From Gemmatimonadota bacterium (GTDB taxonomy: Bacteria; Gemmatimonadota; Gemmatimonadetes; Gemmatimonadales; GWC2-71-9), in NCBI GenBank assembly GCA_003222055.1, contig QHUT01000054.1, forward strand, positions 15,022 to 79,021: a stretch of 64,000 nucleotides of DNA. The letters are read 5' to 3'. Below the pieces are notes generated by a model that was not told where the DNA came from, did no database searches, and was given only the letters and a program-made list of their open reading frames with translations. This document shows, in pieces, positions 159 through 62,772 of this stretch (position 1 is the stretch's first letter; each line of letters opens with the position of its first letter). A program made the translations under genes and the position numbers.

Positions 159-1657
159 CGAGCGGTTGCCTTCCGATCGATTGCGGATTGTGGATTGCGG
201 ATTGCGGATTGAGCCCCAGGGTTCGGCGCTCGCCCCATCCGCAATCCACTCCATTCCCGACACGCGTGCACCGGAACCACCTTCCCCGGGTTCACCCGCT
301 CCTCCGGGTCCCACACGTGGCGCACCGCGCGCATGGCGGCGAGCGAATCGCCGTCGAACAGGAGCGGCATGTAGCGGAGCTTGTCGAGCCCGATGCCGTG
401 CTCTCCCGTGATGGTCCCGCCGGCGGCGATGCACGTGGCCATGATTTCCGCGCTGGCCGCTTCCACCCGCTCGCGCAGGCCCGGCGTGCGGCCGTCGAAC
501 GAAATGTTGGGGTGCAGGTTGCCGTCGCCCGCGTGGAACACATTGCTGACCGTGAGCCCGTACTCGGCGGCGATCCGGGCGATCGTTTCCAGCACGTCGG
601 GGAGCGTGGAGCGGGGAACGACGGCGTCCTGGACCACCAGGTCGCGCGACAGCCGGCCCATGGCGCCGAAGGCTTTCTTGCGGCCGAGCCACAGCTTCTC
701 GCGCTGTTGCGCGTCCGCGGCCACGAGCACCGACCGCGCCCCGTGCGCGCGCAGCACGGCTTGGATCGTCTCGGCGTCCGCCGCGACCGCCGCCTCGTGC
801 GCGCCGTCGAGCTCGGCGAGCAGCACCGCCGCGGCATCGCGCGGGTAACCGGCCGCGTACACCGAGTCCTCCACTGCCTGGATGCACGACTGATCCATCA
901 TCTCGAGCGCGGCGGGCACGATCCCGCTGGCGATCACGGCGGACACGGCCTCACCGGCGGTACGCAATGAGGTGAAGTCGGCGAGCAAGGTGCGAACCGC
1001 CCGCGCGACGGGCAACAGCCGCACGGTGATGCGCGTCGCCACGCCGAAGTTGCCCTCCGAGCCGACGAACAGGCCGACCAGGTCGGGGCCCCACGGCTCG
1101 CCGCCGGGGCTGCCCAGCTCTACGACGCGTCCGTCCGCCAGCGCCACTTCCAGCGCGAGCACATGTGTCGCCGTCACCCCGTACTTGAGGCAGTGCGGGC
1201 CGCCCGCGTTTTCGGCCACGTTGCCGCCGATCGTACACGCGGTCTGACTCGAGGGATCGGGCGTATACTGCAGTCCGTGCGGTGCGGCGGCGACGGAGAG
1301 ACGGACGTTGACGACGCCGGGCTCGACCACGGCCAGCCTGTTGCGGGCGTCGATCTTGAGGATGCGGTTCAGCCGGGTCAGCACGATCAGCACCGCGTCG
1401 CCGTCGGCCAGCGCGCCCCCCGAGAGGCCGGTGCCCGCGCCACGTGGCACGAACGGCATGCCGAGCGCGCCGAGCAGCCGCACGACCGCGATCACCTCGT
1501 CCCGACTCCCCGGGAGCACGACCACGCCGGGCACGCGCCGGTGCGTGGGCAGCCCGTCCTTCGCGTACGTCACGCGCTCCGGCAGCGCCGTCCGCACGTG
1601 GCGCGGTCCGACGATCTCGGCGAGGGTGTCGACTAACGGCGCGAGGTCCCGTGCCAT
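155..1657 (-). CDS. glcD: FAD-linked oxidase, glycolate oxidase subunit GlcD / D-lactate dehydrogenase family
   Basis: Track ORF 155..1753. The likely start is ATG 1657 (MARDLAPLVDTLAEIVGPRHV). Motifs include VVLPGSRDEVIAVVRL, PRGAGTGLSGGA and C-terminal NPGKVVPVHACREWSG, which aligns with the E. coli GlcD tail. The last ~27 codons are encoded by repeat element A1. Confidence 0.85.
   Translation of the reverse strand: MARDLAPLVDTLAEIVGPRHVRTALPERVTYAKDGLPTHRRVPGVVVLPGSRDEVIAVVRLLGALGMPFVPRGAGTGLSGGALADGDAVLIVLTRLNRILKIDARNRLAVVEPGVVNVRLSVAAAPHGLQYTPDPSSQTACTIGGNVAENAGGPHCLKYGVTATHVLALEVALADGRVVELGSPGGEPWGPDLVGLFVGSEGNFGVATRITVRLLPVARAVRTLLADFTSLRTAGEAVSAVIASGIVPAALEMMDQSCIQAVEDSVYAAGYPRDAAAVLLAELDGAHEAAVAADAETIQAVLRAHGARSVLVAADAQQREKLWLGRKKAFGAMGRLSRDLVVQDAVVPRSTLPDVLETIARIAAEYGLTVSNVFHAGDGNLHPNISFDGRTPGLRERVEAASAEIMATCIAAGGTITGEHGIGLDKLRYMPLLFDGDSLAAMRAVRHVWDPEERVNPGKVVPVHACREWSGLRMGRAPNPGAQSAIRNPQSAIDRKATAR
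179..249. repeat. Heptamer-array palindromic element, family A (GCGGATT/AATCCGC), copy A1, one arm degenerate
   Basis: GATTGCGGATTGTGGATTGCGGATTGCGGATTG at 179..211, with partner CATCCGCAATCCAC at 236..249. It is translated as the GlcD-like C-terminus. Confidence 0.9.
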
Positions 1658-1674
1658 GGGTAAATAGTATACCG

Positions 1675-1790
1675 GCAGACGCCCAGACGCCGAGACGCCC
1701 AGCGGTGCGTAGCAGAGAGGGGCCAGGAATCCGTCTTCCTGGCCCCTTATCACGACATCCCGCTAGGCGTCTGAGCGTCTCGGCGTCTGC
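1675..1790. repeat. Composite palindrome: 30-nt arms of NNGCGTCT/AGACGCNN octamers around an inner 11-bp hairpin
   Basis: GCAGACGCCCAGACGCCGAGACGCCCAGCG (1675..1704) against CGCTAGGCGTCTGAGCGTCTCGGCGTCTGC (1761..1790), 26 of 30 complementary. The inner hairpin is GGGGCCAGGAA-TCCGTC-TTCCTGGCCCC at 1719..1746. Confidence 0.9.
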
Positions 1791-1791
1791 T

Positions 1792-2685
1792 CTATGCCGC
1801 TCTCCAGAACCCCCTGAGGGCCCGTCCGTCCGGCGACTCCCGCAGCTTCTCGAACGCGCGCTCTCGTATCTGTCTGATGCGCTCCCGCGTCACACCCATC
1901 AGCGCCCCGATCTTCTCGAGGGTCATGGCCTCGCTGCCCTCTTCGAGGCCGTAATAGAGATAGAGAATCTTGCGCTCGCGGGGCGTCAAGTACTTCTGGA
2001 AGATGCGGTCGATGAACTCGCGCATCAGCTTGCCGTCGGTCTTCTCCTCGATCTCGCCGCCTTCCTGGCCGGCGAAGCGCTCGCCCAGAGTAGCCGCGTC
2101 CTTGTCGCTCCGGTCCACCGGAGCGTCGAGCGACAGCTCCGCCGCCGTCATGCGACGCGCGGTGCGGACGTTCTCGACGGTGTCCTGGAGCGCCATCGCG
2201 ATCTCGTCGTCGGTCGGCTCGCGCCCGAGCTCCTGGGACAGATAGGTCTCGGTGCGGCTCATGCGGATCAGCTGCGAGTTCTGATTCAGCGGAATGCGCA
2301 CGCTGCGGGTCTGCTCGGCGAGTGCCTTCAACACCGCCTGCCGCACCCACCACACCGCATACGAGATGAACTTCACGCCTTGATCCGGATCGAATTTCTT
2401 GACCGCCTTGAGGAGCCCTTCGTTCCCGATCGCCACCAGCTCGGACAGGTCGAGACCGTGACCCTGATATTTCTTGACGTAGGAAATGACGAAGCGGAGG
2501 TTGGCGGTGACGAGCCGCTCGGCGGCTTTTTCATCGCCCCGCTGCACCCGTCGCGCGAGTCTGCGTTCTTCAGCGGGCTCTTTGATGAGGGGGAGCTTCT
2601 GAATGTCCTGCAGGTACTGGTCGAAGGCGCCGGAAGGATTGGCACGAAAAAACGCCTTGGCCTTGCCTCCGTTGGATCGCTCCAT
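1792..2685 (-). CDS. RNA polymerase sigma factor, sigma-70 family (RpoD/SigA-like short form, 297 aa)
   Basis: Region 2 is visible as RFVISYVKKY and FISYAVWWVRQAVLKAL. Region 4 is visible as LTPRERKILYLYYGL and MTLEKIGALMGVTRERIRQIRERAFEKLR. Confidence 0.9.
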   Translation of the reverse strand: MERSNGGKAKAFFRANPSGAFDQYLQDIQKLPLIKEPAEERRLARRVQRGDEKAAERLVTANLRFVISYVKKYQGHGLDLSELVAIGNEGLLKAVKKFDPDQGVKFISYAVWWVRQAVLKALAEQTRSVRIPLNQNSQLIRMSRTETYLSQELGREPTDDEIAMALQDTVENVRTARRMTAAELSLDAPVDRSDKDAATLGERFAGQEGGEIEEKTDGKLMREFIDRIFQKYLTPRERKILYLYYGLEEGSEAMTLEKIGALMGVTRERIRQIRERAFEKLRESPDGRALRGFWRAA

Positions 2686-2962
2686 GCTAGGGCTCCGACG
2701 GTGAAGACTTATGTTGAGCCAGTGGATAACTCTTTAAACGGCGCCCAATATAGGAGTTGCCCGCGAATGGTGCAAATCTACCCATTTTTCCACATCACAA
2801 ATTGTTAGAGCGTCGCACGACTGTCCCATTTGTCCACTATCCACATAGCATGTGGAAAAATACGTGTTGATGCCGCGTTGACGCTGGACCGTGCGCCATG
2901 TGGAGAGGTGGAGAGTAATGTGGGAAGTTGTTGACGCACTTGTAATTAGTCTCAACCCGCGA
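2686..2962 (-). promoter_or_regulatory. Low-GC upstream/leader region of the sigma factor gene with repeated CCACAT/ATGTGG motifs
   Basis: A 277-bp gap that is visibly less GC-rich than its flanks. It holds a perfect 12-nt inverted repeat ATTTTTCCACAT (2784..2795) / ATGTGGAAAAAT (2850..2861) and the palindrome CCACATAGCATGTGG (2841..2855). Further ATGTGG copies are at 2898 and 2918. Confidence 0.5.
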
Positions 2963-4611: not shown

Positions 4612-4660
4612 CCGCGCCCCTCTCCCTTCTCTCCCGGGCTTCCGTTACGATTGAAAGCCC

Positions 4661-5683
4661 ATGCAGGACGTCAAAGATATCACGATAATCGGCGCCGGCC
4701 CGACGGGGTTGTTCGGCGCGTTTTACGCCGGCATGCGCGGGGCATCCTGCCGCCTCATCGACAACCTCGACCAGGTGGGCGGGCAGCTCACCGCGCTCTA
4801 TCCCGAGAAATACATCTTCGACGTGGCCGGCTTCCCGAAGGTCCTCGCCAAAGACCTCGTGAAGGGCATGGCCGAGCAGGCGCTGCAGTTCAAGCAGCCG
4901 GTCCATCTCGGCGAGAACGTGATGGGCCTGAAGCGCGACTCAGAGAACGGGAAGCCGGCCTTCACGGTGGTGACGGAGAAGGACGAGTACCCGTCGCGCA
5001 CGGTGCTGATCGCGGGGGGGATCGGCGCGTTCACCCCCCGCAAGCTGCCGCTCAAGGACGTGGACCGCTGGTACGGGAAAGGGCTGCACGATCGCGTCCT
5101 GGATCCGAAGGTGTTCAGCGGCAAGCGCGTCCTGCTGGTCGGGGGCGGTGATTCGGCGTTCGACTGGGCCGTGAACCTCCAGGGGATCGCGCGGTCCATC
5201 GTGATGATCCACCGCCGCGACGGCTTCCGCGCGCACGCCGCGACGGTACGTCAGGTGCAGGAGCTGTGCGCGGCGGGCAAAATGGAGCTCCGTACGTTCT
5301 GGGAGCTGAAGATGATCCACGGCGAGGACGTGATCGATGCCGTGACCATCTATAACAGCAAGACCAAGGTCGAGGAACGCCTGGCGGTCGACAGCGTGAT
5401 TCCGCAACTCGGCTTCATCTCCTCACTCGGCGCCATCGCGCAGTGGGGGCTCGACATCGAGAAGGGCGAGATCAAGGTCTCGCAGACCATGGCGACCAAC
5501 CTGCCGGGTGTGTTCGCGGCCGGGGACATCACCACCTATCCGGGCAAGCTCAAGCTGATTGCGACCGGCGCCGCCGAGGCGGCGATCGCCGTCAACCACG
5601 CGGTGCACTTCATCAATCCCGCGGTGAAGGTCGAGCCGGGGCACTCCTCGAACATGGCGCTGTTTGGGCAGACGGAAGACTGA
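4661..5683 (+). CDS. Ferredoxin-NADP+ reductase, thioredoxin-reductase-like type (YumC family)
   Basis: ITIIGAGPTGLFGAFYAGMRG...GGQLTALYPEKYIFDVAGFP and a second dinucleotide fold, VGGGDSAFDWA. Confidence 0.85.
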   Translation: MQDVKDITIIGAGPTGLFGAFYAGMRGASCRLIDNLDQVGGQLTALYPEKYIFDVAGFPKVLAKDLVKGMAEQALQFKQPVHLGENVMGLKRDSENGKPAFTVVTEKDEYPSRTVLIAGGIGAFTPRKLPLKDVDRWYGKGLHDRVLDPKVFSGKRVLLVGGGDSAFDWAVNLQGIARSIVMIHRRDGFRAHAATVRQVQELCAAGKMELRTFWELKMIHGEDVIDAVTIYNSKTKVEERLAVDSVIPQLGFISSLGAIAQWGLDIEKGEIKVSQTMATNLPGVFAAGDITTYPGKLKLIATGAAEAAIAVNHAVHFINPAVKVEPGHSSNMALFGQTED

Positions 5684-5721
5684 CGGTAGTGGCATGGTCC
5701 TCTACCGTCTTCTACCGCCCT
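5671..5721. terminator. Hairpin between convergent stops, arms made of two ~10-nt direct repeats (GACGGWAG / CTACCGYC)
   Basis: GACGGTAG (5682..5689) pairs with CTACCGTC (5702..5709). The outer units GACGGAAG (5671..5678) and CTACCGCC (5712..5719) pair 6 of 8. It sits exactly between the FNR TGA and the dacB TAG. There is no U-tract. Confidence 0.4.
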
Positions 5722-7235
5722 ATCTGTACCACCACCGAGTCAATCTGGTTGAGCATCTGCTGATACGGCACCGCGTGCCCGTTCGCCTGGACGCTGAACG
5801 TGACGGTCCGGCCGTTGGGCTGCTCGATGTAGCCCGACAGGCTGTTGACGCGGTCGATGCTGCCGGTCTTGGCGATCACGCGGCCTTCCAGGGGCGTGCC
5901 GACGAAGCGCTTGAGGAGCGAGCCCGGTTGTCCCGCGTGCGGCAGCGCGGCGACGAACGCCGCTCCCTTGGGATGGCGATGCATGTAGGCGAGGAGCTGC
6001 GCGAACGCGTGCGGGGTGACCAGGTTGCCGGCCGCCAGCCCCGACCCGTCCTCCAGTGCGAACGCGGTCGAGTCGATCTTCACCGAATCGATCAGGAAAC
6101 GGCGCTCCACGTCGAGCCCCGCCGCCCAGCTGCCCTCTCCCTTGATTTCGCGACCCAGCACCTTGAGCAGCATCTCCGCGAACCAGTTCTGGCTGGTGTT
6201 GAGGATCGGGAAGAGGACGTCGGGCAGCGGTCGCCCGCGGTATTCGACGAGCGGGGAGCCGCAGCAGCGGGCGGCCCGATAGGCGAGTGAATCCGTGGTG
6301 CTGATCGCGCCGCCCGCCACCGCGACGCCCTTGCGCCCGAGCGACGTCGCCAGGGCCCGCGCGGCGTAGAGATTCGGGTCCGGGACCGCGACGCTCTCCA
6401 CCCCGGGCTTCCTGCCGAGCGCGACCGTTCCCTCGGCCCGGATGCCCCACCCCCCGCCGCTGCGGAAGAAGTTGTCTCCGATGGTCGACGTCGAGTCCGC
6501 GGCTACGGTGCGGGCGCGGTTTTCGAACGTGATGAGCCCCAGGTCGGGCGACCAGGTGATCACGGGGGGCGCGTCCACGCCCGGCCCGGGCGCGATGTGG
6601 AAGTCCACGCTGTTGTCGTGGAACCCGAGGCCGGACACCGGCGCCGCGTACCACCACGTCAGGTCCCACGCATTCCAGCTGTAGTGAATCAGGGTCGGCT
6701 CGAAATACGATCCGTCGCCCACCAGTTTCCCCGTGATGCGCCGGATGCCGCGGCCGCGCACGGAGTCGGCGATGGCGTCGACGGCGGTGAACGCCGAATC
6801 ACACGCCCCGGGCGCGAGCGTGTCGACGGAGAAGCACCGCTCGGACCAGGTGGGATCGCCCCGCCCGTAGAAGATCAGGTCACCGTACAGCACGCCGCTG
6901 TCCACCCGCCCGTTCACGTACAGGCTGGTGGTCACGCGGTAATCCACCGGCAGCAGCACCGCCGCGGCCGCGGTGACCACGAGCTTCGTGTTGCTCGCCG
7001 GCACGGAGAAGTGATCGGCGTTGCGTCGATACAGGACGCGGCCGCGATCGTCGACGACGTAGAGCCCCCACGTGGCGCGGTCGAACGGCGGGGCGTCGAT
7101 CAGCTGCGCCAGCCGGTGCTCCAGAGAGCCGCGCAACGCCGCGGTGCGCGGTCGCGCGGCGGAGGGAGGCGCGGGGGACGACTGCGCCGCCAGGCCCGAG
7201 CTAATCGTAAGCGATGCGAGGATCAGCTTTCGCAT
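5712..7235 (-). CDS. dacB: D-alanyl-D-alanine carboxypeptidase/endopeptidase, PBP4 (peptidase S13)
   Basis: Signal peptide MRKLILASLTISSGLAAQ. SxxK motif in PASNTKLV. KTG motif in IAKTGSIDRVNSLSGY. Confidence 0.85.
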   Translation of the reverse strand: MRKLILASLTISSGLAAQSSPAPPSAARPRTAALRGSLEHRLAQLIDAPPFDRATWGLYVVDDRGRVLYRRNADHFSVPASNTKLVVTAAAAVLLPVDYRVTTSLYVNGRVDSGVLYGDLIFYGRGDPTWSERCFSVDTLAPGACDSAFTAVDAIADSVRGRGIRRITGKLVGDGSYFEPTLIHYSWNAWDLTWWYAAPVSGLGFHDNSVDFHIAPGPGVDAPPVITWSPDLGLITFENRARTVAADSTSTIGDNFFRSGGGWGIRAEGTVALGRKPGVESVAVPDPNLYAARALATSLGRKGVAVAGGAISTTDSLAYRAARCCGSPLVEYRGRPLPDVLFPILNTSQNWFAEMLLKVLGREIKGEGSWAAGLDVERRFLIDSVKIDSTAFALEDGSGLAAGNLVTPHAFAQLLAYMHRHPKGAAFVAALPHAGQPGSLLKRFVGTPLEGRVIAKTGSIDRVNSLSGYIEQPNGRTVTFSVQANGHAVPYQQMLNQIDSVVVQIGR

Positions 7236-9665: not shown

Positions 9666-9738
9666 GGGGTCGAGTGTCGAAAAGGTTGACAGTGTGGCGG
9701 GAGCGAGCCAACATAGGGAGGCAGCCCGACCGCGTCAA

Positions 9739-30810: not shown

Positions 30811-32060
30811 CAGCGCGTCCGCGCGAAGCGCGCCGCGTATGCACCGTCGATTCCGTCGCGCTGTGGCAGGGACTGCAGGTCGCCGTCCGGAGTGAGCAGG
30901 GCAGCCGGCACCGCGGCCGGCACGGGCGCGCGCCCGAACTCAGGGTGGCAGGCGAGGAACTCGGTCACGATGTCGTCGTTCTCCTCCGGCTCGAGCGAGC
31001 AGGTACTGTAGACGAGCAGTCCTCCCGCACCGACGAGCGTTGCGGCGGCCGCGAGCAGCGCCCGCTGCCGCCGGGCGGCGTGTACGATCGTGCGCGGCGT
31101 GATCCGCCAGCGGGCGTCCGGATGCCGGGCCATGGTGCCGGTAGCGGAGCACGGGGCGTCCACCAACACGGCGGATGCGGTTCCCGGCGCGAGCGGTGCC
31201 GACAGAAGATCGGCGACCGTCACCCGGATCGCCACTCCCGCCCGTCGCGTCGTCTCGGCCAGCCGGCGCATGCGCTCCGGCCGGGCGTCCCCCGCCACGA
31301 CTCGAGCGCCGCCCCGCTCCAGCATCACGGCCTTGCCGCCCGGCGCGGCACAGGCGTCGTACACGAGCGCTCCCGGGGGGATCGCGGCGTAGCGGCAGAC
31401 GAGGGCGTGGGCGGGGTCCTGGACGATAAAGCCGCCTTCCGAATACCCCGGCAACTGCACGGGAAACGGGAAACGGGAAACGTGGTCGAGGCGTGACACC
31501 CGCAGGCCGGCTCCATGGGGCGCTTCTTCTACACCAAACCCGACCTTCCGGAGCTCGAGCGCGAGCACATCGGCGGACCAACGGGCAGGCTGAAGCGTGA
31601 GATTCGGCTTCGTGTCATTCCAGGCGACCAGCCGGGTTGTGTCGGTCGCCCCAAAGAGGCGCCGCCAGCGCTCGACGAGCCACGACGGGTGCGTGTTCTC
31701 GCCCGTTTCCCGTTTCCGGTTTCCCGTTTCCCGAGCGAGCCTTCGCAGCGCCTGGTTCACATACCTCGCTGCCGCGTCGCCCGCCGCTTCCCGCGCCAGC
31801 TCCACGCTGGTGGCGACCGCCGCGTAGGCCGGCACGCGGGCCAATGCGGCCAGCTGGTAGGCGCCAAGACGGAGGACATCGTGCAGGCGCGGGTCGGCGT
31901 GGCGCAGCCGCAGCCGGCGGTCGAGATCCGCTCGCCCCCGCAGCACGCCGGCGGCGAGCTCATAGGCGAGCCGGCGGTCCCGCCCGGCGAGCGTGGGAAG
32001 CACCCGGTCCCGCGCCGCCTGGAACGTGCCGCCGGAGCGCACCGCCTGGAGGATGTGCAA
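30810..32060 (-). CDS. rsmB: 16S rRNA (cytosine967-C5)-methyltransferase
   Basis: HPSWLVERW, FIVQDPAHALV, DACAAPGGK, DAPCSATGT and YSTCSLEPEEN. It contains two in-frame heptamer arrays (see repeats). Confidence 0.9.
   Translation of the reverse strand: MHILQAVRSGGTFQAARDRVLPTLAGRDRRLAYELAAGVLRGRADLDRRLRLRHADPRLHDVLRLGAYQLAALARVPAYAAVATSVELAREAAGDAAARYVNQALRRLARETGNRKRETGENTHPSWLVERWRRLFGATDTTRLVAWNDTKPNLTLQPARWSADVLALELRKVGFGVEEAPHGAGLRVSRLDHVSRFPFPVQLPGYSEGGFIVQDPAHALVCRYAAIPPGALVYDACAAPGGKAVMLERGGARVVAGDARPERMRRLAETTRRAGVAIRVTVADLLSAPLAPGTASAVLVDAPCSATGTMARHPDARWRITPRTIVHAARRQRALLAAAATLVGAGGLLVYSTCSLEPEENDDIVTEFLACHPEFGRAPVPAAVPAALLTPDGDLQSLPQRDGIDGAYAARFARTR
31459..31482. repeat. (GGGAAAC)x3 heptamer array inside rsmB
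   Basis: ACGGGAAACGGGAAACGGGAAACG. It is translated on the minus strand as SRFPFP. Confidence 0.9.
31702..31733. repeat. (CCCGTTT)x4 heptamer array inside rsmB, inverted partner of 31459..31482
   Basis: CCCGTTTCCCGTTTCCGGTTTCCCGTTTCCCG. It is translated on the minus strand as RETGNRKRETG. Confidence 0.9.
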
Positions 32061-35534: not shown

Positions 35535-36727
35535 GCGGATCCCGATCGCAGGTAGCGGCGGCGCCAGGCATCGGCCCACGGGCCGAAGGCGTTCCGCCGG
35601 ATCGCGGCCCGCATGTCCTGCGCGAGCCGGATCAGGTAGCGGACGTTGTGCAGCGACAACAGTCTCAGGCCCAGCAGCTCTTCCGCTACGAACAGGTGCC
35701 GGAGGTACCCCCGCGAGAACGTGGTGCACGCCTCGCAGTCGCACGAGTCGTCGAGCGGCCGCGGGTCCTCGCGGTGCTCGGCGTTGCGAATGTTCACGGG
35801 GCCGTCGGGCGTGAAGGCCGAGCCGTTTCGCCCGTTGCGCGTCGGCGCCACGCAGTCGAACAGATCCAGCCCGCGCTCCACCGCCGCCACCAGGTCCTCG
35901 GGAAACCCCACGCCCATAAGATAACGCGGCAGGGCGGGGGGGAGCCGCGGCTCGAGCGCGTCGAGCATCGCGTACATCGCCGCCTTGGGCTCGCCGACCG
36001 AGAGGCCGCCGATCGCGAGACCGGTCCAGTCGCGCATGTCGCAGATCCGGCGCAGTCCTTCCTCCCGCAGCGCGAGATGGACGCCGCCCTGGAGAATGGG
36101 CCACAAGGTCTGGTTGCACGACGCTACGACGCCACGTTGCAAGGAGTGCCCGGCGTCAGTCGTGGAACGTGGCGTCGTAGCGTCGTGTGACGCTTTCAGT
36201 TCCTCATGCCGCTTCCGGCACCGCTCCAACCATCTCAGCGTTCGCTCGAGGGCGTCCCTGGCCGCGCTCTCGTCCGCGCCCCCGGGGACCACGTGGTCGA
36301 ACGCCATCGCGACGTCGGCGCCCAGGGTCCACTGGATCTCCGTGGCGCGCTCGGGCGTGAGCCGGCGACGGCCGCCGTCCACGTGGCTCTGGAACTCGAC
36401 GCCGTCGTCGTCCACGCGCCGGAAGCCCTCGAGCGAGAATACCTGGAAGCCGCCCGAGTCCGTGAGCAGCGGTCGATCCCAGCCCATGAAGCGGTGCAGC
36501 GCGCCGAGCGTCGCCACCACCTCCTCGCCCGGGCGCACGTGCAGGTGATAGGTGTTCGCGAGCACGAGCGTCGCGCCCGCGGCGCGGAGGTCGTTGGGCG
36601 AAAGCGCCCGCACGGTGCCTTGAGTCCCGACCGGCATGAAGACCGGCGTTTCGACGCTACCGTGCGGGAGGGTGAGGGTGCCGGCGCGGGCGGGGCCGGA
36701 GGTCGCGTCGACCTTGAACTCGAACAC
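35531..36727 (-). CDS. tgt: Queuine tRNA-ribosyltransferase (tRNA-guanine transglycosylase)
   Basis: The start GTG 36727 gives (M)FEFKVDATSGPARAGTL, which aligns with E. coli MKFELDTTDGRARRGRL. Also LTDSGGFQVFSL, GLAIGGLSVGE and CDCEAC. The ~25-aa loop HDATTPRSTTDAGHSLQRGVVAS is encoded by palindrome B1. The track ORF N-terminus (to 36811) runs through repeat A2 and is rejected. Confidence 0.92.
   Translation of the reverse strand: MFEFKVDATSGPARAGTLTLPHGSVETPVFMPVGTQGTVRALSPNDLRAAGATLVLANTYHLHVRPGEEVVATLGALHRFMGWDRPLLTDSGGFQVFSLEGFRRVDDDGVEFQSHVDGGRRRLTPERATEIQWTLGADVAMAFDHVVPGGADESAARDALERTLRWLERCRKRHEELKASHDATTPRSTTDAGHSLQRGVVASCNQTLWPILQGGVHLALREEGLRRICDMRDWTGLAIGGLSVGEPKAAMYAMLDALEPRLPPALPRYLMGVGFPEDLVAAVERGLDLFDCVAPTRNGRNGSAFTPDGPVNIRNAEHREDPRPLDDSCDCEACTTFSRGYLRHLFVAEELLGLRLLSLHNVRYLIRLAQDMRAAIRRNAFGPWADAWRRRYLRSGSA
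36117..36187. repeat. Octamer-array palindromic element, family B (CACGACGC/GCGTCGTG), copy B1, inside tgt
   Basis: Perfect 22-bp inverted repeat: CACGACGCTACGACGCCACGTT (36117..36138) and AACGTGGCGTCGTAGCGTCGTG (36166..36187), with a 27-nt loop. Confidence 0.95.
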
Positions 36728-36734
36728 GGGCGTT

Positions 36735-36812
36735 ATTGCGGATTGCGGATTTCGGATTGCGGATTCGAAAGTCGGGCGTCCAATCCGCAATCCACAATCC
36801 GCAATCCGCAAT
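36735..36812. repeat. Heptamer-array palindromic element, family A, copy A2
   Basis: Left arm ATTGCGGATTGCGGATTTCGGATTGCGGATT (36735..36765). Loop CGAAAGTCGGGCGTCC. Right arm AATCCGCAATCCACAATCCGCAATCCGCAAT (36782..36812). 29 of 31 positions are complementary. It fills the queA-tgt gap. Confidence 0.95.
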
Positions 36813-37870: not shown

Positions 37871-37952
37871 AATTGCGGATGGCGGATTTCGGATTGCGGA
37901 TTCGAAGGTCGTGGGTCCAATCCGCAATCCGCACTCCACAATCCGCAATCCG
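37871..37952. repeat. Heptamer-array palindromic element, family A, copy A3
   Basis: AATTGCGGATGGCGGATTTCGGATTGCGGATT, loop CGAAGGTCGTGGGTCC, then AATCCGCAATCCGCACTCCACAATCCGCAATCCG. It fills the ruvB-queA gap. Confidence 0.95.
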
Positions 37953-41930: not shown

Positions 41931-41943
41931 GACGGCCCCTCCT

Positions 41944-41989
41944 GTGCGTCTGTGCGTCTGTGCGTCTAGCCTACTATAGATGTAGACGC
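41944..41989. repeat. (GTGCGTCT)x3 octamer array ending in a 7-bp hairpin
   Basis: GTGCGTCTGTGCGTCTGTGCGTCT at 41944..41967. GCGTCTA (41962..41968) pairs with TAGACGC (41983..41989). The GCGTCT core is the same as in element 1675..1790. Confidence 0.85.
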
Positions 41990-49599: not shown

Positions 49600-49628
49600 G
49601 GGCGAAATAGTATAACTACCTTTGTCGC
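49600..49628. promoter_or_regulatory. 29-bp divergent intergenic region with a single AT-rich block (AAATAGTATAAC)
   Basis: This is the only non-coding DNA between two divergently transcribed GT4 genes. TATACT (minus sense) lies 9 nt from one ATG, and TATAAC (plus sense) lies 12 nt from the other. Confidence 0.4.
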
Positions 49629-51895: not shown

Positions 51896-51902
51896 CCGTA
51901 GA

Positions 51903-53096: not shown

Positions 53097-53139
53097 GCCG
53101 TCCTGTGGTTCCCGGGCGTCCGGTCTGACGTCTGGTGCG

Positions 53140-55181: not shown

Positions 55182-55228
55182 GTGAACCCGCCGCTTGCCC
55201 GGAAGGTGAGCCTCCGAGTAACGTAGTC

Positions 55229-56068
55229 GTGATCCCCAGCCCCGCGCTACTCATGTACCACCGCGTCGTGCGCAGTCGTTGGACTCTGACCGGTCTCGCC
55301 GTCGTCGTCGCACTCGCGCTCGCTGCGCTGGCGGCGCCGCTCATCGCGCCGGGCGATCCCTATCACGGACACCTCGCCGCCGCGTTGCAGGCGCCGTCGC
55401 GCGCCTTCCCGCTCGGCACCGACGCGCAGGGACGCGACGTCCTGAGCCGGCTGCTGTTCGGCGCCCGGTTGTCGCTCGCCGTCGGGCTCGCGAGCCAGGT
55501 GATCGCCCTCGCGGTCGGGCTCACGCTGGGTCTGGCGGCGGGCTTCTACGGGCGCTCCGTGGACGCGGTGGTGATGCGCGCCGCCGATGTGACCCTCGCC
55601 TTCCCGTCCCTCCTCCTGCTCATCGCCGTCGCCGCCGCCGTGAAGCCCACGCTGCCGGTCGTGTGCGTGGTGATCGGCATCGTGGGCTGGGCGGGCATGG
55701 CCCGCCTGGTGCGCGCCCAGGTCCTCGTGGTGCGTCGTCTCGACTACGTCCACGCGGCGCGCGCGTTCGGCGCCTCCGACGCACGCCTCGCCGCGCGCCA
55801 CGTGCTCCCCAACGTGCTGGGCCCGGTGATCGTCGCCGCCACCCTCGGTGTCGGTGGTGCGATCATGGCCGAAGCCGCGCTCTCGTTCGTGGGGCTGGGC
55901 GCGCCACCGCCCACGCCCTCGTGGGGCGCGATGGTGGCCGAGGGCCGCGACCTGCTGCGGGTGGCGCCGTGGGTGTCGCTCTTTCCCGGGCTCGCGATCG
56001 GCCTGACTGTGCTAGCCGTCAATCTCATCGGCGACGGCTTACGTGACGCCCTGGATGTGCGGGCATGA
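55229..56068 (+). CDS. ABC peptide/nickel transporter permease (DppC/OppC-like)
   Basis: LAAPLIAPGDPY...GTDAQGRDVLSRLLFGARLSL...YVHAARAFGAS. Confidence 0.85.
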   Translation: MIPSPALLMYHRVVRSRWTLTGLAVVVALALAALAAPLIAPGDPYHGHLAAALQAPSRAFPLGTDAQGRDVLSRLLFGARLSLAVGLASQVIALAVGLTLGLAAGFYGRSVDAVVMRAADVTLAFPSLLLLIAVAAAVKPTLPVVCVVIGIVGWAGMARLVRAQVLVVRRLDYVHAARAFGASDARLAARHVLPNVLGPVIVAATLGVGGAIMAEAALSFVGLGAPPPTPSWGAMVAEGRDLLRVAPWVSLFPGLAIGLTVLAVNLIGDGLRDALDVRA

Positions 56069-57252
56069 CCGACATCGCCTACCACCCGACGCGCCTGCGC
56101 GCCTTGCGCGACCAGTTCCGCGCGCTGCGCGCCGCCGAGTTTCCCTGGACCGCGGACACCGTCTATTTGAACAACGCGTCCATCGGGCCCATCCCGGAGC
56201 GCACCCGCCGCGTACTCGACGAGTTCACCGCCAAGCGCACCGCCCCACACCTCCTCCCGGACCGCGAGCTGCAGGCGGGGCTGCAGGCGGCGCGCGCGGC
56301 GGTCGCCCGCCTGCTCAACGCGGAGCCGGCCGAGATCGCGCTCGCCACCAACACCAGTCACGGGCTGAACCTCGCGGCGCGCGCCCTGCCGCTCAAGCGC
56401 CGCGACGTGGTGCTCGTGTCCGATCGCGAGTTCCCTGCCAACGTGTACCCGTGGCTGCTGCTCAAGAAGCAGGGGATCGAAGTGGAGCTCGCTCCGTGCG
56501 CCGGCGAAGGCTGGCCCGACGAGGACTATCTGGTCGAGCGTCTGCATGACCCGCGCGTGCGCGTGCTCGCCGTCTCGTTCGTCCAGTTCGCCAACGGGTA
56601 CCGCGCAGACCTGGGGCGCCTCGGGGCCGCCTGCCGTGCCAACGGGACGTTTCTCGTGGTGGATGGGATTCAGGGCGTAGGAAACTCGACCCTCGACGTG
56701 CGCGAGACCCCCGTGGACATCCTCGCGTGCGGCGGCCAGAAGTGGCTGCTCTCCCCCTGGGGCTCGGGCTTCGTGTACGTGCGGCGCGAGCTCATCTCGG
56801 CGCTCGAGCCCGCCGTCACCGGCTGGATGGCGTTCGAAGGGACCGACGACTTCTCCCGCCTCACCGAGTACAACCCCACCTTCCGCGCCGACGCCCGCCG
56901 CTTCGAAATGGTCACCCTGCCGTTCCAGGACTTCCACGGCATGACGACATCAGTCGGCATGCTCGCCGAGCTGGGCGTCGACGACATCGCGCAGTACGCC
57001 CGTACACTGCACGAGCCGGTGCTCCACTGGGCCGAGGAGAACGGCATCCGCGTCGTCTCACCCTCGGACGATGCGCACCGCTCGGCCATCGTCTGCCTCG
57101 CACCCCAGCATCCCGCCGAGGCGTATCACGCGCTCAAGCGCGCGCACGTCGTCTGCTCGTTGCGCGAGGGCGCCATCCGCCTGGCTCCGCATTGCTACAA
57201 CACCGTCGAAGAGATGGAGCGGGTGGTCGACGTACTCGACCAGTTAGAGTAA
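56065..57252 (+). CDS. Class V aminotransferase-fold PLP enzyme (cysteine desulfurase/selenocysteine lyase-like)
   Basis: VYLNNASIGPIPERT...TNTSHGLN...DGIQGVG...GGQKWLLSPWGSGF. 4-nt overlap with the dppC-like stop. Confidence 0.8.
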   Translation: MTDIAYHPTRLRALRDQFRALRAAEFPWTADTVYLNNASIGPIPERTRRVLDEFTAKRTAPHLLPDRELQAGLQAARAAVARLLNAEPAEIALATNTSHGLNLAARALPLKRRDVVLVSDREFPANVYPWLLLKKQGIEVELAPCAGEGWPDEDYLVERLHDPRVRVLAVSFVQFANGYRADLGRLGAACRANGTFLVVDGIQGVGNSTLDVRETPVDILACGGQKWLLSPWGSGFVYVRRELISALEPAVTGWMAFEGTDDFSRLTEYNPTFRADARRFEMVTLPFQDFHGMTTSVGMLAELGVDDIAQYARTLHEPVLHWAEENGIRVVSPSDDAHRSAIVCLAPQHPAEAYHALKRAHVVCSLREGAIRLAPHCYNTVEEMERVVDVLDQLE

Positions 57253-57259
57253 AGCGTTA

Positions 57260-57330
57260 CACGACGCCACGACGCCACGACGCCACGTTGCGAGAGCCTC
57301 TTTCGTGGAACGTGGCGTCCTGCCGTCATG
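57260..57330. repeat. Octamer-array palindromic element, family B, copy B2 (between convergent genes)
   Basis: (CACGACGC)x3 + CACGTT at 57260..57289, with partner AACGTGGCGTCCTGCCGTCATG at 57309..57330 (19 of 22 complementary). The loop starts GCGAG and ends TCGTGG, like B1. Confidence 0.9.
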
Positions 57331-57982
57331 CAACGCTCTCTCGGTGCTTATCCCCCCACCACGCCCACGCCACAAACAGCCACCCGAAGATGATACCGCC
57401 GATGGCGAGCGCGACGCGCGTCGTCGGCGGTGGCGGACTGAACAGCGAGCCGACGTACGACAGCAGCAGCACCGCGACGAGCGCCCAGAATCCGTAGCTC
57501 CCCGCGCGGTCGCGGGCTCGCGTGGCGGTGGCGTAGAGCCAGACGCCCGCGACGAACATCACTCCCTCGACGACCACCGTGCCGGCGACGGAGTTCCAGA
57601 GACCGAGCCCCAGCGGCGTGCCGCCCGGGTACAGCGGCATGTCGGGGCGATGGGTGACGTAGTCGAGCACCCAGTGGCTCACGACGAGGAGCGCGATCAC
57701 GACCCCTCCGCGGTCGTCCAGCGTGCGCGCGCGGTACACCAACCCGAACAGCGCGCCCCATCCGATCAGGGTGACGAGGCTGTGCGAGATCGGGATCGAG
57801 TCGAGCCACAGCGTCAGGAACGGATTCGGCCCCGGCACGACGTGGGCCTGCTCCCAGCCGAGCAGCAGGAACACCGGCCACAGCAGATCGGCGAGCGACG
57901 TGGCGGCGAACAGCGTGCCCAGCGAGGCTCGCGGCGCGGCACGCTTCGCGGCCAGGGCGACGGCGTAGTGGCCGATGAACAT
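57326..57982 (-). CDS. Integral membrane protein (putative membrane-bound metal-dependent hydrolase-like)
   Basis: MFIGHYAVALAAK... with about six hydrophobic segments and conserved His residues. The family is uncertain. The last codons lie in repeat B2. Confidence 0.5.
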   Translation of the reverse strand: MFIGHYAVALAAKRAAPRASLGTLFAATSLADLLWPVFLLLGWEQAHVVPGPNPFLTLWLDSIPISHSLVTLIGWGALFGLVYRARTLDDRGGVVIALLVVSHWVLDYVTHRPDMPLYPGGTPLGLGLWNSVAGTVVVEGVMFVAGVWLYATATRARDRAGSYGFWALVAVLLLSYVGSLFSPPPPTTRVALAIGGIIFGWLFVAWAWWGDKHRESVA

Positions 57983-57984
57983 GT

Positions 57985-59247: not shown

Positions 59248-59315
59248 GGCGCGGAATCGTACGAGAACCCCCAACCGCTGGCAAGCGCCCGGCGACCTCA
59301 CTAGGTTGTAATCCG

Positions 59316-61475: not shown

Positions 61476-61477
61476 GA

Positions 61478-61564
61478 GAGGGGCTAGGGGTCGGGGGCTA
61501 GGGGCTGGGGACTGCGCTGCCATCCCGAATCCCTGACCCCTGACCCCTGATCCCTGACCCCTGA
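61478..61564. repeat. G-tract / C-tract heptamer palindrome (GGGGCTA-type arm against CCCTGAC-type arm)
   Basis: GGGGCTAGGGGTCGGGGGCTAGGGGCTGGGG at 61480..61510 and CCCTGACCCCTGACCCCTGATCCCTGACCCCTGA at 61531..61564. The right arm ends at the ATG of the amidohydrolase gene. Confidence 0.9.
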
Positions 61565-62772
61565 TGTTGCGCATCCGCGCAGGGTCCGTGCACCCCGTCA
61601 CGGCGCCGCCCATCACGGACGGCGCCGTTCTCGTTGCGGACGATGGCCGGATCGCGGCGGTCGCGGCGCATGCGCAATTGCCCGACCCTCCAGGATCCCG
61701 CCGGGTCGAGTTTCCCGACGCCGTCCTCGTCCCGGGCCTCGTCAACACGCACACCCACCTCGAGCTCACCCATCTCGCCGGTCGCAATCCGGAGCGCGAG
61801 TTCTCCCGCTGGATCCGCACCATCCGGGCGCTGAAGGACGCGACCACGCCCGAAGAGTTCGATCACTCGGCCGAGCAGGGCGTGCGGGACTGCTGGACGG
61901 CGGGCGTCACCTGCGTCGCGGACACGGGAAGTACCGGAGCGCCCCTCAGGGCGCTCGCCCGCCTCGGCGCGCGCGGGATCTATTATCAGGAGGTATTCGG
62001 CCCCGATCCGGCGGACCGGGCGGTGAGCCTGGCCGACCTGCAGGCCGCCGTGGTCCGGCTCGGTCCCGTCGCCTCCGCCCGCGCACGGCTCGGCGTGTCG
62101 CCGCACGCGCCGTACACCGTGAGCGAGCCGCTCTATCGCGCGGTCGCCGATTTTGCACGGCGCGAAACGCTCCCCGTCGCGATGCACCTGGCCGAGTCGC
62201 GCGATGAGACGGCGCTGGTACGCGACGGGGCGGGCTCGTTCGCCCAGGCGCTGCGCGCGCGCGGTATCCCCGTGCAAGCGCACCACTGCTCGCCGGTGCA
62301 GTATCTCCTGCAACTTGGCGTCTTAGAACATGCAACGGGGTGGCTCTTCATCCACTGCGTTCAAGTGGACGCACGGGACATCGCGATTCTGCGGGACTCG
62401 GGTGGGGCGGTGGCCGCCTGCCCCCGTTCCAACCGCGCCCACGGGCACGGCACGGCGCCCCTGGCTGCATTCCGGGCCGCCGGCATCCCGGTCGGGCTCG
62501 GCACCGACTCGGTGGTCAGCGCGGGCGATGTCAACCTGTGGGCCGAGGCGGCGGCCGCCGGACTGCACGGGGAGGACGCGATCCGCATGCTCACGATCGA
62601 GGGAGCGCGGGCGCTCGGGCTCGACGGCGAGATCGGCTCGCTCGAGGTCGGGAAGCAGGCCGACCTCGCGGTTTTTCCCTCTGCCGCCCTCGCCCGCCCT
62701 TTGCCGCCATCTGCCGCCCTTCTCACCCTCGTCGCCGGACGGGTCGTTCGCGGCTACATTCCCGCCCCATGA
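61564..62772 (+). CDS. Amidohydrolase-family protein (chlorohydrolase/deaminase-like)
   Basis: VLVPGLVNTHTHLELT (HxH metal site), MHLAES and GLGTDS. The C-terminal part contains tandem decamers. Confidence 0.8.
   Translation: MLRIRAGSVHPVTAPPITDGAVLVADDGRIAAVAAHAQLPDPPGSRRVEFPDAVLVPGLVNTHTHLELTHLAGRNPEREFSRWIRTIRALKDATTPEEFDHSAEQGVRDCWTAGVTCVADTGSTGAPLRALARLGARGIYYQEVFGPDPADRAVSLADLQAAVVRLGPVASARARLGVSPHAPYTVSEPLYRAVADFARRETLPVAMHLAESRDETALVRDGAGSFAQALRARGIPVQAHHCSPVQYLLQLGVLEHATGWLFIHCVQVDARDIAILRDSGGAVAACPRSNRAHGHGTAPLAAFRAAGIPVGLGTDSVVSAGDVNLWAEAAAAGLHGEDAIRMLTIEGARALGLDGEIGSLEVGKQADLAVFPSAALARPLPPSAALLTLVAGRVVRGYIPAP
62671..62730 (+). repeat. Tandem decamers (CTGCCGCCCT-like, about 5-6 units) in the 3' part of the amidohydrolase CDS
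   Basis: GTTTTTCCCT CTGCCGCCCT CGCCCGCCCT TTGCCGCCAT CTGCCGCCCT TCTCACCCTC, read in register from 62671. No inverted partner was seen. Confidence 0.75.

Follow-up and report, generated by a model that had tools for sequence, protein, structure and literature searches.

Palindromic arrays of tandem heptamers and octamers form a lineage-wide hairpin class in Gemmatimonadales

G-rich heptamer repeats have been described in Xanthomonas (GGGAATC, GGGANTN) and Nostoc (GGGGA(C/T)T) (Rehm et al. 2015, PMC4692102). In Xanthomonas, 70–75 cases per genome consist of a convergent pair of arrays, one on each strand, that could form a stem-loop. The arrays occur no more than 50 bp from stop codons and seldom between divergent genes. 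They are under-represented in coding DNA and are conserved in position and variable in length and sequence among sister species; they show no association with mobile elements, and a G-quadruplex has been proposed (PMC4692102). The RAYT-REPs of Xanthomonas (GTAGGAGCGCGC...) are a sequence class separate from its heptamer arrays. The elements reported here were found in a 64,000-nt stretch of DNA (the window) from a soil bacterium of the Gemmatimonadota and in its relatives. Their arms are built of a 7–8-base unit in tandem, and the opposite arm is the reverse complement. They share with the Xanthomonas arrays the tandem heptamers, the G-rich core with few free positions, the number of units (about four) and the G-rich arm placed first. 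Unlike those arrays, the units here are very diverse (7–12 nt), a three-tetrad G-quadruplex is possible in only 11 of 69 elements, and about one third of the detected elements are read in frame within housekeeping genes. The arms of our elements can also enclose a terminator or a protein domain and show covariation across 198 nt; there are dispersed, discrete families (the 78-nt family A), and the host lineage differs. The preliminary description had not recognised this combination as a described family. The elements matched no Rfam family, but convergent heptamer arrays had been reported; the class is thus partly described, with the Xanthomonas arrays as its nearest published description, and otherwise mostly undescribed.

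The elements also resemble REP, BIME and REPIN sequences, which are abundant short palindromes too, mostly outside genes, and lie between cistrons or at the 3′ ends of genes. Both form larger hairpins from inverted doublets, carry lineage-specific sequence at persistent positions and have a proposed role as mRNA 3′-end stabilisers. Unlike REP-type sequences, the present elements have no GTAG/CGTC head, their arms are unit arrays and not one imperfect palindrome, and some copies are coding and in frame. Rickettsia palindromic elements (RPE), which Ogata and colleagues are said to have described in 2000, reportedly lie in frame in protein genes at surface-exposed positions with function kept. 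The in-frame palindromes are common to both; unlike our elements, RPE are conserved families of 100–150 bp without tandem-unit arms, occur only in Rickettsia and are not concentrated after stop codons. Mycobacterial interspersed repetitive units (MIRU), attributed to Supply and colleagues in 1997, are reportedly intercistronic repeats in operons whose reading frames share bases with the neighbouring stop and start codons. The GlcD tail encoded by element E1 similarly ends in an ATGA overlap with glcE, but MIRU are direct tandem units of 40–100 bp, are not palindromic and contain no 7–8-nt units. Like intrinsic terminators, our elements are GC-rich stem-loops right after stop codons, and several enclose a true terminator-type hairpin; they differ in having far longer stems (25–35 bp) and no T-run after the 3′ arm. 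The TAACTGA repeats of Beggiatoaceae occur as 169 direct sets versus one inverted set, upstream of start codons (PMC4679880). The cyanobacterial STRR and TAACTGA arrays are comparable to our elements as intergenic heptamers in 2–6 copies with a fixed orientation to the neighbouring genes, some of them overlapping stop codons. Unlike our elements, they are nearly all direct, and TAACTGA has stops in all frames and therefore cannot be translated.

The window contains nine stable hairpin loci with arms of 2–5 tandem units of 7–10 nt (Table 1). Their fold z-scores, computed against 200 dinucleotide shuffles, range from −3.4 to −9.7. The units named in the preliminary description are present in the sequence, and its estimate of at least eight loci with one architecture stands as far as these nine are concerned; the array that it had listed at 41944 is one-armed, as is another at 62677–62725, where its stated range ends. 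The arrays at 31459 and 31702, listed there as separate elements, are the two arms of one pair (E4) with 198–221 nt of coding DNA between them, and this duplex has an energy of −56.6 kcal/mol. The inner hairpin enclosed by E2 is of terminator type, belongs to the sigma gene and is conserved; relatives without the arrays have it too. E3 is the weakest member among the window elements. Two independent assemblies (L001 and L002) match the window at 99.9% identity, gap-free over the first three elements, so the element loci are not an assembly artefact.

Table 1. Tandem-unit arrays and associated hairpins in the window. Coordinates are window positions; z, fold z-score.
Feature	Coordinates	Strand	Units and fold	Context
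E1	179..250	−	GCGGATT, about 4.7 units in 3′ arm (gene strand), 5′ arm decayed; z −4.35	Translated as GlcD C-terminal tail (GlcD 155..1657); ends just before overlapping glcE start at 158
E2	1675..1790	−	Outer arms of 3 octamers each, CAGACGCC at 1675–1702 and GGCGTCTN at 1767–1790; −92.6 kcal/mol, z −9.74	Between sigma-70 gene stop (1792) and glcD start (1657)
Inner GC-rich hairpin	1719..1746	−	GGGGCCAGGAA-6 nt-TTCCTGGCCCC	Bracketed by E2 arms
E3	5671..5721	.	About 2 units per arm (GACGGWAG.. / CTACCGTC..); z −3.35	Overlaps stop codons of convergent genes 4661..5683 (+) and 5712..7235 (−)
E4, 3′ arm on gene strand	31457..31484	−	(GGGAAAC)3.4 on + strand	In frame in RsmB (..VSRFPFPV..), linker after ferredoxin-like domain
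E4, 5′ arm on gene strand	31702..31736	−	(CCCGTTT)4.6 on + strand	RsmB, read as ..RETGNRKRETG.., linker before ferredoxin-like domain
E5	36117..36187	−	Family B, unit CACGACGC; z −6.68	Insert of 69 nt, in frame, within a tRNA-guanine transglycosylase (TGT) loop, read as HDATTPRSTTDAGHSLQRGVVAS
E6	36735..36812	−	Family A, GCGGATT ×4.4 per arm, 78 nt; z −9.24	Entire queA-tgt spacer; first base overlapped by queA stop codon
E7	37872..37949	−	Family A, 78 nt; z −8.82	Occupies ruvB-queA spacer
One-armed array	41942..41967	−	AGACGCAC ×3.2 on gene strand; z +0.24	Between TATAGT box and ribosome-binding site of DnaB_C-like gene
E9	57253..57337	.	Family B, CACGACGC ×3.5; z −4.77	Between convergent genes 56065..57252 (+) and 57326..57982 (−)
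E10	61476..61564	+	GGGGCTA-type units ×4.6, CCCTGAC units ×4.9; z −4.15	Between PBP1A stop (61475) and amidohydrolase start (61588)
One-armed C-rich period-10 array	62677..62725	+	CCCTCTGCCG ×4.4	3′ part of amidohydrolase gene

The tandem-unit hairpins are real and abundant across Gemmatimonadales and constitute a lineage-wide class. A strict detector, defined as a tandem array with a reverse-complement partner within 300 nt, found 5 elements in the window versus 0 in 10 second-order Markov simulations. The search was widened to 80 Gemmatimonadales loci, with relatives sampled as 20-kb pieces, which together with the window amount to 1.39 Mb. This census yielded 72 elements, predominantly of period 7 or 8, and the class is therefore not restricted to the window. 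Among the arrays found by TRF, 46% of those with period 7 and 36% of those with period 8 serve as arms of pairs; the figures for other periods are 8/165 (period 9) and 3/78 (period 6). The typical layout is a G-rich unit (7–8 nt, rarely 9–12 nt) repeated three to five times, a spacer, and then C-rich reverse-complement units. In 63 of the 72 elements, G-rich units make up the 5′ arm and C-rich units the 3′ arm, a rule that is identical when read from either strand. Copy number is narrow, with 3–5 units in 48/69 arms. Dozens of different unit sequences occur, each with a constant core (GCGGA.., GGGA..C, AGACG..) and 2–3 variable positions.

The elements are most frequent between convergent gene pairs and least frequent between divergent ones. 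They occupy 22% of convergent, 8.9% of co-directional and 3.9% of divergent gaps of at least 50 nt (p = 0.003 and 0.0006). In 17 of the 23 co-directional cases, the 5′ arm begins 0–11 nt past the stop codon. Within the minus-strand gene array of the window, three of the four intergenic gaps longer than 40 nt are filled, in line with the preliminary description. Some elements bracket a classical terminator-type hairpin. Units without stop codons are translated within GlcD, GlcF, TGT and RsmB, including essential genes, and the in-frame reading proposed for the arrays at 179 (GlcD tail), 36117 (TGT) and 31459/31702 (RsmB) is borne out. In-frame presence is tolerated if the unit contains no stop codon. 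RNA fold stability showed no sense-strand bias (24 vs 30 elements, p = 0.18), nor did G·U pairs (116 sense vs 126 antisense). None of the elements has a U-tract or T-run after the 3′ arm, and a terminator consensus scan flagged none of them.

Sequence comparison shows that whole elements recur at unrelated sites. Family A is represented by eight copies in six organisms (that of the window and five others) at four sites, and the copies align without gaps over 78 nt. Compensatory double changes affect 11 of its 31 pairs, a number reached in 0 of 500 shuffles. Every unit has changed at its variable positions, and the mismatch at pair 18–61 is retained in all eight copies. Free slippage homogenisation should erase this mismatch, so its persistence speaks for selection or for master elements as the source of the copies. 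E6 and E7 both have ATTTCGG and a CGAA..GTCC loop. The family B elements E5 and E9 share loop-proximal sequence, their loops starting with GC(A/G)AG and ending with TCGTGG. The shared variants and loop ends first noted in the preliminary description are thus present, and they support dispersal, acting alongside local slippage. Its stronger claim, dispersal rather than slippage, does not hold throughout: discrete insertions cannot account for arms that enclose native DNA and change in concert at one site.

At orthologous sites, arm complementarity is kept while the unit sequence changes. Among 24 close species, 18 have a GlcF linker hairpin with z < −3, and at least 10 unrelated units are used there. 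In rsmB the arms are made of GGGAAAC, GGGGCTC, GGTGTCG or GGGATGC, four heptamers across species, and in each case they are complementary to each other across an interval of exactly 198 nt of domain-coding DNA (−57 to −65 kcal/mol). This pattern can also arise via recombinational exchange of whole arm-domain-arm cassettes. The arrays at the sigma-glcD site have an AGACGNN core in common, and within every species the two arms match. In close relatives, the tgt and glcD-tail sites can be empty, partly deleted or held by other families. Most species lack a significant hairpin at the glcD-glcE junction, where short tails give z of about 0. When empty, the tgt site (ACGTCG|GG) and the glcD tail (GCGGGGGTGG) each resemble one unit of the element that is found there elsewhere, and in filled sites that motif stands at each of the two junctions. 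These two filled/empty comparisons would fit insertion at microhomology and deletion between direct repeats alike. In another relative, L003, an A-type element occupies the place that a GGAGGT 10-mer element holds in its nearest relatives, and a remnant of the earlier arm survives.

Several explanations can be weighed against these data. The elements could be non-autonomous mobile elements of REPIN or MITE type, discrete hairpins whose excision or copying and insertion depend on a dedicated enzyme encoded elsewhere in the genome, such as a RAYT/IS200-IS605-type HUH transposase or a hairpin-targeting IS110-type recombinase, with which the families co-evolve. Family A, with its discrete length, fixed arms, 15–16-nt loop, conserved internal mismatch and four unrelated sites, is what such elements would look like; the non-repeat loop flanks common to E5 and E9, the re-occupied site in L003 and the 6-nt direct repeats around the tgt insert point the same way. 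The persistent positions with lineage-specific sequence also resemble what is reported for REPIN populations. We nevertheless consider this reading distinctly unlikely. Apart from the missing REP head, no conserved terminal motif is present and the flanks are unrelated, the apparent target duplications look like a single unit of the element, and dozens of unrelated units stand side by side. The window encodes neither RAYT nor any other transposase, and Pfam identifies all its genes as housekeeping genes; the Xanthomonas arrays are likewise unlinked to mobile elements and distinct from RAYT REPs. As the other genomes were covered in 20-kb pieces, an enzyme acting in trans may still be encoded outside the sampled DNA. 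Arms that bracket a terminator and a 198-nt protein-domain segment are impossible for a discrete insert.

Somewhat less doubtful, but still improbable in our judgement, is that the elements have no cellular role and result, as neutral or mildly selfish side products, from a mutational bias specific to the lineage (7–8-nt slippage plus palindrome correction). They would then build up wherever sequence is unconstrained: behind stop codons, in linkers and in the tails of proteins. The absent sense-strand signature, the variable occupancy of the tgt and glcD-tail sites, the non-significant glcD-glcE hairpins and the clade-specific GlcF hairpin fit such a view. The elements take up the free space from the stop codon to the next ribosome-binding site, and their depletion in divergent gaps is explicable by purifying selection on promoters. 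Against this, occupancy in GlcF and rsmB persists over species of 75–95% GlcD identity despite complete unit turnover, the family-A mismatch is conserved, copy number is narrow, the polarity rule demands a mechanistic cause or selection, and very stable stems in essential mRNAs are expected to be costly. The constant core with 2–3 variable positions could reflect a sequence-specific ligand, beyond stem stability alone. The G-rich arm would then be the active part, as a G-quadruplex or a row of protein sites (one subunit of a ring-shaped or OB-fold nucleic-acid-binding protein per 7–8 nt), and the C-rich arm a competing antisense, giving a structural switch. The typical 3–5 units, comparable to the strong preference for four in Xanthomonas, and the fixed polarity of the G-rich strand relative to the neighbouring gene agree with this, as do the (GCGGATT)n arrays present in contigs of 41–73% G+C, just 19 of 75 of which are strictly paired. 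Heptamer footprints of cold-shock proteins have also been noted (PMC4679880). Four G3+ runs in an arm occur in just 11/69 elements, however, many ligands would be needed because many cores coexist in one genome, no candidate binding protein was identified, and a near-perfect complement 10–20 nt away would out-compete a two-tetrad G-quadruplex or a weak protein site. Ligand-binding arrays are the least probable of these readings.

The reading that we tentatively favour, at a probability of about 0.4, is that the elements are self-maintaining palindromic microsatellites that evolve at the DNA level and behave as REP-type stem-loops when transcribed. Judging from the end states, replication slippage would even out the units inside one arm, and gene conversion or intrastrand template switching would carry changes from one inverted arm to the other. 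Through this copying, a pair may repair itself and outlast single arrays. New copies and replacements may come from template switching that is primed at microhomology resembling a unit, without a dedicated transposase. Once transcribed, the elements are predicted to fold into very stable stem-loops (about −40 to −90 kcal/mol) lacking a U-tract, which we conjecture act as intercistronic and 3′-end hairpins of REP type, as a barrier to 3′ exonucleases and read-through. With the G-rich arm first, no C-rich Rho-loading stretch would be exposed in either direction of transcription. The proposed homogenisation between arms is the same process as quasipalindrome correction, which Ripley in 1982 and the Lovett laboratory reportedly described in E. 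coli: intrastrand template switching is said to copy a change between the arms of an imperfect palindrome, and to do so in an enzyme-independent way. That process is a mutational mechanism for single short palindromes and not an element family, and it is not known to operate in Gemmatimonadota or over a span of about 200 nt. The rsmB pair would require template switching over 198 nt, longer than in the classic quasipalindrome cases.

The two one-armed arrays of the window stand apart from the hairpins. For the array at 62677–62725, no distinctive partner arm was found. The array at 41942–41967, which had been described as palindromic, was rejected as a hairpin, as it folds no better than shuffles; a single inverted unit (41984–41990) is the only one upstream of it. 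Through its unit, this array is related to E2.

The palindromic tandem-unit elements of the window are real and abundant, and they represent a form of the bacterial heptamer-repeat phenomenon that is largely undescribed. We use "element" for a hairpin whose arms are tandem copies of a 7–10-nt unit and of its reverse complement. Every array named in the preliminary description was recovered with TRF and an inverted-repeat finder, and folds were compared with 200 dinucleotide shuffles (table). Nine hairpin elements lie in the 64-kb window; a strict detector found five elements there and none in 10 Markov simulations. The single architecture ascribed to all loci holds for the hairpin loci and fails for the array at 41944, which has one arm. 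The arrays at 31459 and 31702 had been listed as separate loci; both are real, and they form the two arms of a single long-range pair. At the end of the range first described, the array at 62677 is again real, yet it is one-armed, C-rich and inside a gene. It has a period of 10 (CCCTCTGCCG, 4.4 copies), lies within the 3′ end of an amidohydrolase gene and is without a convincing partner. The G-rich left arm of E10, 1.15 kb upstream, was rejected as that partner: the best duplex is −55 kcal/mol, and other G-rich windows reach −48, so the pairing is not distinctive.

Hairpin elements and one-armed arrays of the window, with fold z-scores against dinucleotide shuffles
Feature	Position (nt)	z-score	Remark
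E1	179–250	−4.4	
E2	1675–1790	−9.7	
E3	5671–5721	−3.4	
E4, one arm	31457–31484		rsmB
E4, other arm	31702–31736		rsmB
E5	36117–36187	−6.7	tgt; family B
E6	36735–36812	−9.2	family A
E7	37872–37949	−8.8	family A
E9	57253–57337	−4.8	family B
E10	61476–61564	−4.2	
Array	41942–41967	+0.24	one arm
Array	62677–62725		one arm

The window has a G+C content of approximately 70% and stems from a soil Gemmatimonadales bacterium; homologues of its proteins carry Gemmatimonadales names. Two independent metagenome contigs, JGI 3300005187 and ENA ERZ27315202, match positions 1014–12685 and 1–8571, respectively, without gaps at 99.9% identity, and since independent assemblies are identical, an assembly artefact was rejected. 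Genes were mapped with a codon log-odds model and Pfam. All are housekeeping genes: glcDE, a sigma-70 gene, BamA/TamB, ruvABC, queA, tgt, rsmB, thiGS, def/fmt, a GT4 glycosyltransferase cluster, tyrS, PBP1A and argR. Pfam identified no transposase, RAYT or reverse transcriptase among the window genes, and there are no tRNAs in the window. A catalogued repeat family with its RAYT had been raised as the alternative to a new class; Rfam returned no match at the gathering threshold on either strand of the window.

The class extends beyond the window. A GlcD scan of species-representative genomes provided 80 Gemmatimonadales loci, and a census of TRF arrays with a reverse-complement partner over these loci and the window (1.39 Mb) gave 72 non-redundant elements. 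The period is 7 in 37 of them and 8 in 23 (60/72 together). Such pairs account, through their arms, for 46% of the period-7 and 36% of the period-8 arrays in the census; at other periods, 8/165 arrays (period 9) and 3/78 (period 6) are paired. Copy number is 3–5 units in 48 of 69 arms. In 63/72 elements the 5′ arm is rich in G and the 3′ arm in C, a polarity that reads alike on either strand. Locus L066 places such elements in the genus Gemmatimonas as well. The units are highly diverse and include GCGGATT, CACGACGC, GGCTATC, AGTGAGA, GACGGTC, GGGGTTG and many more. We rejected a strict genome-specificity of units: GCGGAGT and GCGGAAC elements are neighbours at one locus (L203), so a unit variant goes with its element and not strictly with its genome. 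A general G-quadruplex role was also dropped, as one arm holds at least four G3+ runs, the capacity for a three-tetrad structure, in only 11/69 elements.

Of the gaps that measure 50 nt or more, elements occupy 22% where the flanking genes converge, 8.9% where they are co-directional and 3.9% where they diverge (chi-square p = 0.003 by count, 0.0006 by length). The 5′ arm starts 0–11 nt past the stop codon in 17 of the 23 co-directional cases; the distance from the 3′ arm to the next start is usually 10–40 nt. A T-run 3′ of the arms was never seen, and a consensus terminator scan flagged none of the elements; on these grounds we rejected canonical intrinsic terminators, which differ in having a U-tract directly after the stem. 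T-rich tails are confined to the inner hairpins of long-"loop" elements, which often enclose a classical terminator hairpin with such a tail (loci L073, L056 and L010; window 1719–1746). The sigma–glcD site is laid out in the order stop codon, (AGACGNN)n array, terminator, (NNCGTCT)n array, −10 box. The arms at this site are matched within each species and differ at 2–3 unit positions between species, and some relatives have a single arm only or the terminator only.

AGACG-type arrays at window 1640–1675 and 41925–41995 both adjoin a −10-like box at their end. The former reads GCGTCT-N5-TATACT, with the glcD ATG 7 nt further on; the glcD mRNA is probably leaderless. The latter reads GCGTCT-N5-TATAGT and lies upstream of a DnaB_C-like gene. 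The same ..GCGTCTAGTATATAGTATG layout of array and −10-like box is present in relatives.

Of the 72 elements, 24–25 lie in frame inside genes, at no fewer than five distinct sites (GlcD, GlcF, TGT, RsmB and an N-terminal signal region). The GlcD tail past the conserved HACREW motif is encoded by E1. Orthologues end in GVRNAEWGVRSG..SALRTPHSAL, RNAERGTRNES..FRVPTSAL or LRITDRGLRIE..QSAIGNPKSAI, or lack the tail. That a hairpin is always needed at the glcD–glcE junction was rejected, as short tails fold like shuffles and only 10/38 tails, all long, have z < −2. In-frame or intercistronic structures of another kind were noted at the same sites in some relatives, namely in L007 (2555–2642) and L009 (11383–11470), both GlcD tails, and in L204 upstream of tgt. 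They take the form of double palindromes rich in G+C (CCCCGGGC-gcga-GCCCGGGG two times over, within an outer stem; z −6 to −7) or, alternatively, of a small CCCGGG-type palindrome.

TGT carries a 69-nt insert where solved TGT structures show a gap, and its homologues include empty alleles (ELKAS directly followed by CNQTLW), partial deletions and inserts of other units. In the public gene calls of three homologues (P0125, P0137, P0162; window 36728–36811), the TGT N-terminus is about 28 residues too long. The extensions read through the upstream hairpin element (MNAERGTRNAEQKD..FRVPTSAF, MRNGWANFDSPFHIPHSAL) and are annotation artefacts that arise because the units are stop-free. The linker of GlcF, which lies just beyond the window (L002), is a 100–126-nt hairpin with z < −3 in 18/24 close species, where at least 10 unrelated units are used, and in only 1/20 distant species. 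In three further loci (L046:1238–1388, L079:2087–2219 and L049:1307–1433), an orthologous gene begins ATGACTGA.. and continues directly as a G-rich array. A hydrophobic stretch resembling a signal peptide appears to be encoded by the "loop" and a Pro-rich segment by the C-rich arm, and therefore the whole element seems to be translated at the protein N-terminus.

The strongest case of conserved structure with replaced sequence is rsmB, which has one arm in each linker flanking the ferredoxin-like domain. At the DNA level, the arms of four orthologous genes are built from GGGAAAC, GGGGCTC, GGTGTCG or GGGATGC. They are mutually complementary in 4/4 genes, with duplex energies of −57 to −65 kcal/mol, and are spaced by exactly 198 nt of domain-coding DNA in every gene. 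The RsmB orthologues are also mosaic (window 30810–32060; P0242–P0274). There are two independent backbones (P0243/P0257/P0263 and P0242/P0272/P0274); identity within each is 93–98% in the flanks and 52–64% in the arm–domain–arm segment, which has different arm units. The same cassette across different backbones shows 96% identity versus 86–88% for the flanks. Thus, the inverted arms bound an exchangeable or recombination-isolated cassette.

The preliminary description had argued for dispersal from variants shared between copies, and both of its pairs bear this out: E6 and E7 are 78-nt copies with a variant unit and loop ends in common, and E5, inside tgt, shares loop-proximal sequence with the intergenic E9, 21 kb off. 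Family A (GCGGATT) aligns without gaps over 78 nt in eight copies that come from six organisms, the window's included, and from four unrelated sites. In this alignment, 88.9% of cells are paired (slid controls, 23–45%), and 11/31 pairs show compensatory double changes, a value matched by 0/500 shuffles; pair 18–61 is unpaired in 8/8 copies. A locus whose GlcD is 93% identical to that of the window (L003) has an A-type element at the GlcF site, where its nearest relatives have a GGAGGT 10-mer element; a remnant of the old arm, CCCCCGTC, is still present.

Filled and empty alleles could be compared at two sites, tgt and the glcD tail. The empty site resembles one element unit, and the filled site has the motif at both junctions, as direct repeats of 6 nt (tgt) or approximately 9 nt (glcD tail) that look like the unit itself. 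Read from these junctions, the pattern would fit microhomology-primed copying, and deletion between direct repeats would give an identical one. No target-site duplication, which MITEs have at a fixed length, was seen at E6, E7 or E9. RNA folds are as stable in sense as in antisense (24 versus 30 elements, Wilcoxon p = 0.18), and G·U pairs number 116 and 126 on the two strands. Because neither measure is biased, the sense transcript shows no mark of selection, and RNA-level selection on that strand was rejected.

The data fit palindromic microsatellites maintained at the DNA level. We infer that slippage would act within arms, that copying would occur between arms, and that elements would spread and overwrite through template switching on unit microhomology. 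As RNA, an element would fold into a very stable stem-loop that lacks a U-tract, REP-like between cistrons and at 3′ ends; with the G-rich arm first, it would expose no C-rich Rho-loading stretch in either transcription direction. The conserved mismatch of family A, the constant unit cores and the 198-nt rsmB span do not fit easily with maintenance at the DNA level in this form. Three other readings therefore stay alive: a trans-acting enzyme that mobilises the elements, a sequence-specific ligand, and pure neutrality.

The closest description concerns the (GGGANTN)n heptamer arrays of Xanthomonas, typically of about four units. There, 70–75 cases per genome are convergent array pairs with stem-loop potential; arrays lie at most 50 bp from stop codons and rarely between divergent genes, different species have sites in common but differ in the sequence there, no link to mobile elements was found, and the authors suggested a G4 role (Rehm et al. 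2015, PMC4692102). The over-representation of bacterial heptamer repeats is cited there as noted since 2007 (as cited in PMC4692102). Our elements resemble such Xanthomonas/Nostoc-type pairs in unit length, copy number and convergent, G-first polarity, and in being near stop codons, depleted between divergent ORFs, and constant in position with variable sequence. Unlike those pairs, which are under-represented within coding sequence, they also lie in frame inside genes, and a GGGNATC-type quadruplex unit with four G3+ tracts is not general among them. High copy number (9 in 64 kb; 72 in 1.39 Mb) and a mostly extragenic position at 3′ ends or between cistrons recall REP/REPIN–RAYT systems, but the GTAG or CGTC head by a 20–40-nt imperfect palindrome is absent from element ends and flanks. 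RAYT-associated REPs of Xanthomonas are a separate sequence class (PMC2817692), and nearly all TAACTGA repeats of Beggiatoaceae are direct (PMC4679880). As with Rickettsia palindromic elements, a palindrome lies in frame in a protein gene, the TGT insert falling in a structural gap with empty alleles; the tandem-unit arms and the host phylum differ. Our literature searches returned nothing on such repeats in Gemmatimonadota and, for follow-ups on GGGAATC, only primer noise.

Exact matches to GCGGATTGCGGATT were sought in metagenome contigs and occur in more than 119 of them, with 41–73% G+C; the arrays often lie directly past a stop codon, and 19/75 are strictly paired. This G+C range points to many organisms for the (GCGGATT)n arrays (L083–L162). 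One contig (L159) has a long one-armed array with more than 15 copies of the 8-mer GGCGGATT, and two others (L096, L140) have composite direct repeats of array plus spacer.

We consider it improbable that the arrays are the footprint of an unrecognised replication mode or enzyme system that occurs in several phyla and also delimits gene cassettes. As a replication mode, they may be transposase-free "template-switch replicators" that spread and overwrite each other via unit microhomology. As an enzyme system, a dedicated activity, for instance a hairpin-targeting recombinase or a reverse transcriptase of telomerase-like or snap-back type, may write 7–8-nt units that extend outward from the boundaries of genes. 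If true, such a system would span Gemmatimonadota, Xanthomonas, cyanobacteria and the organisms behind the metagenome contigs, and exchangeable arm–domain–arm cassettes inside genes would be delimited as in rsmB.

With its dozens of unit families, its occupied as well as empty alleles and its arms that co-vary at long range, the Gemmatimonadales lineage makes array maintenance a testable comparative and genetic question. The elements are a route to new protein sequence: essential enzymes (GlcD, GlcF, TGT, RsmB) owe linkers and tails to them that are Gly/Arg-rich and Pro-rich. They also cause annotation errors, as in the TGT extensions, and show where the mosaic segments of rsmB have their borders. 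To our knowledge, almost nothing is known of gene expression in the phylum Gemmatimonadota; intercistronic stems of −40 to −90 kcal/mol must influence mRNA processing and translation if they are transcribed.

Upstream of the sigma-70 gene, an AT-rich gap of 277 nt (window 2686–2962) contains four of the five sites in the window that differ from the DnaA box TTATCCACA by no more than one mismatch (2721−, 2786+, 2837+ and 2851−). The cumulative GC-skew minimum of the window lies at approximately 2–4 kb. The gap may be an oriC-like or DnaA-titrating cluster.
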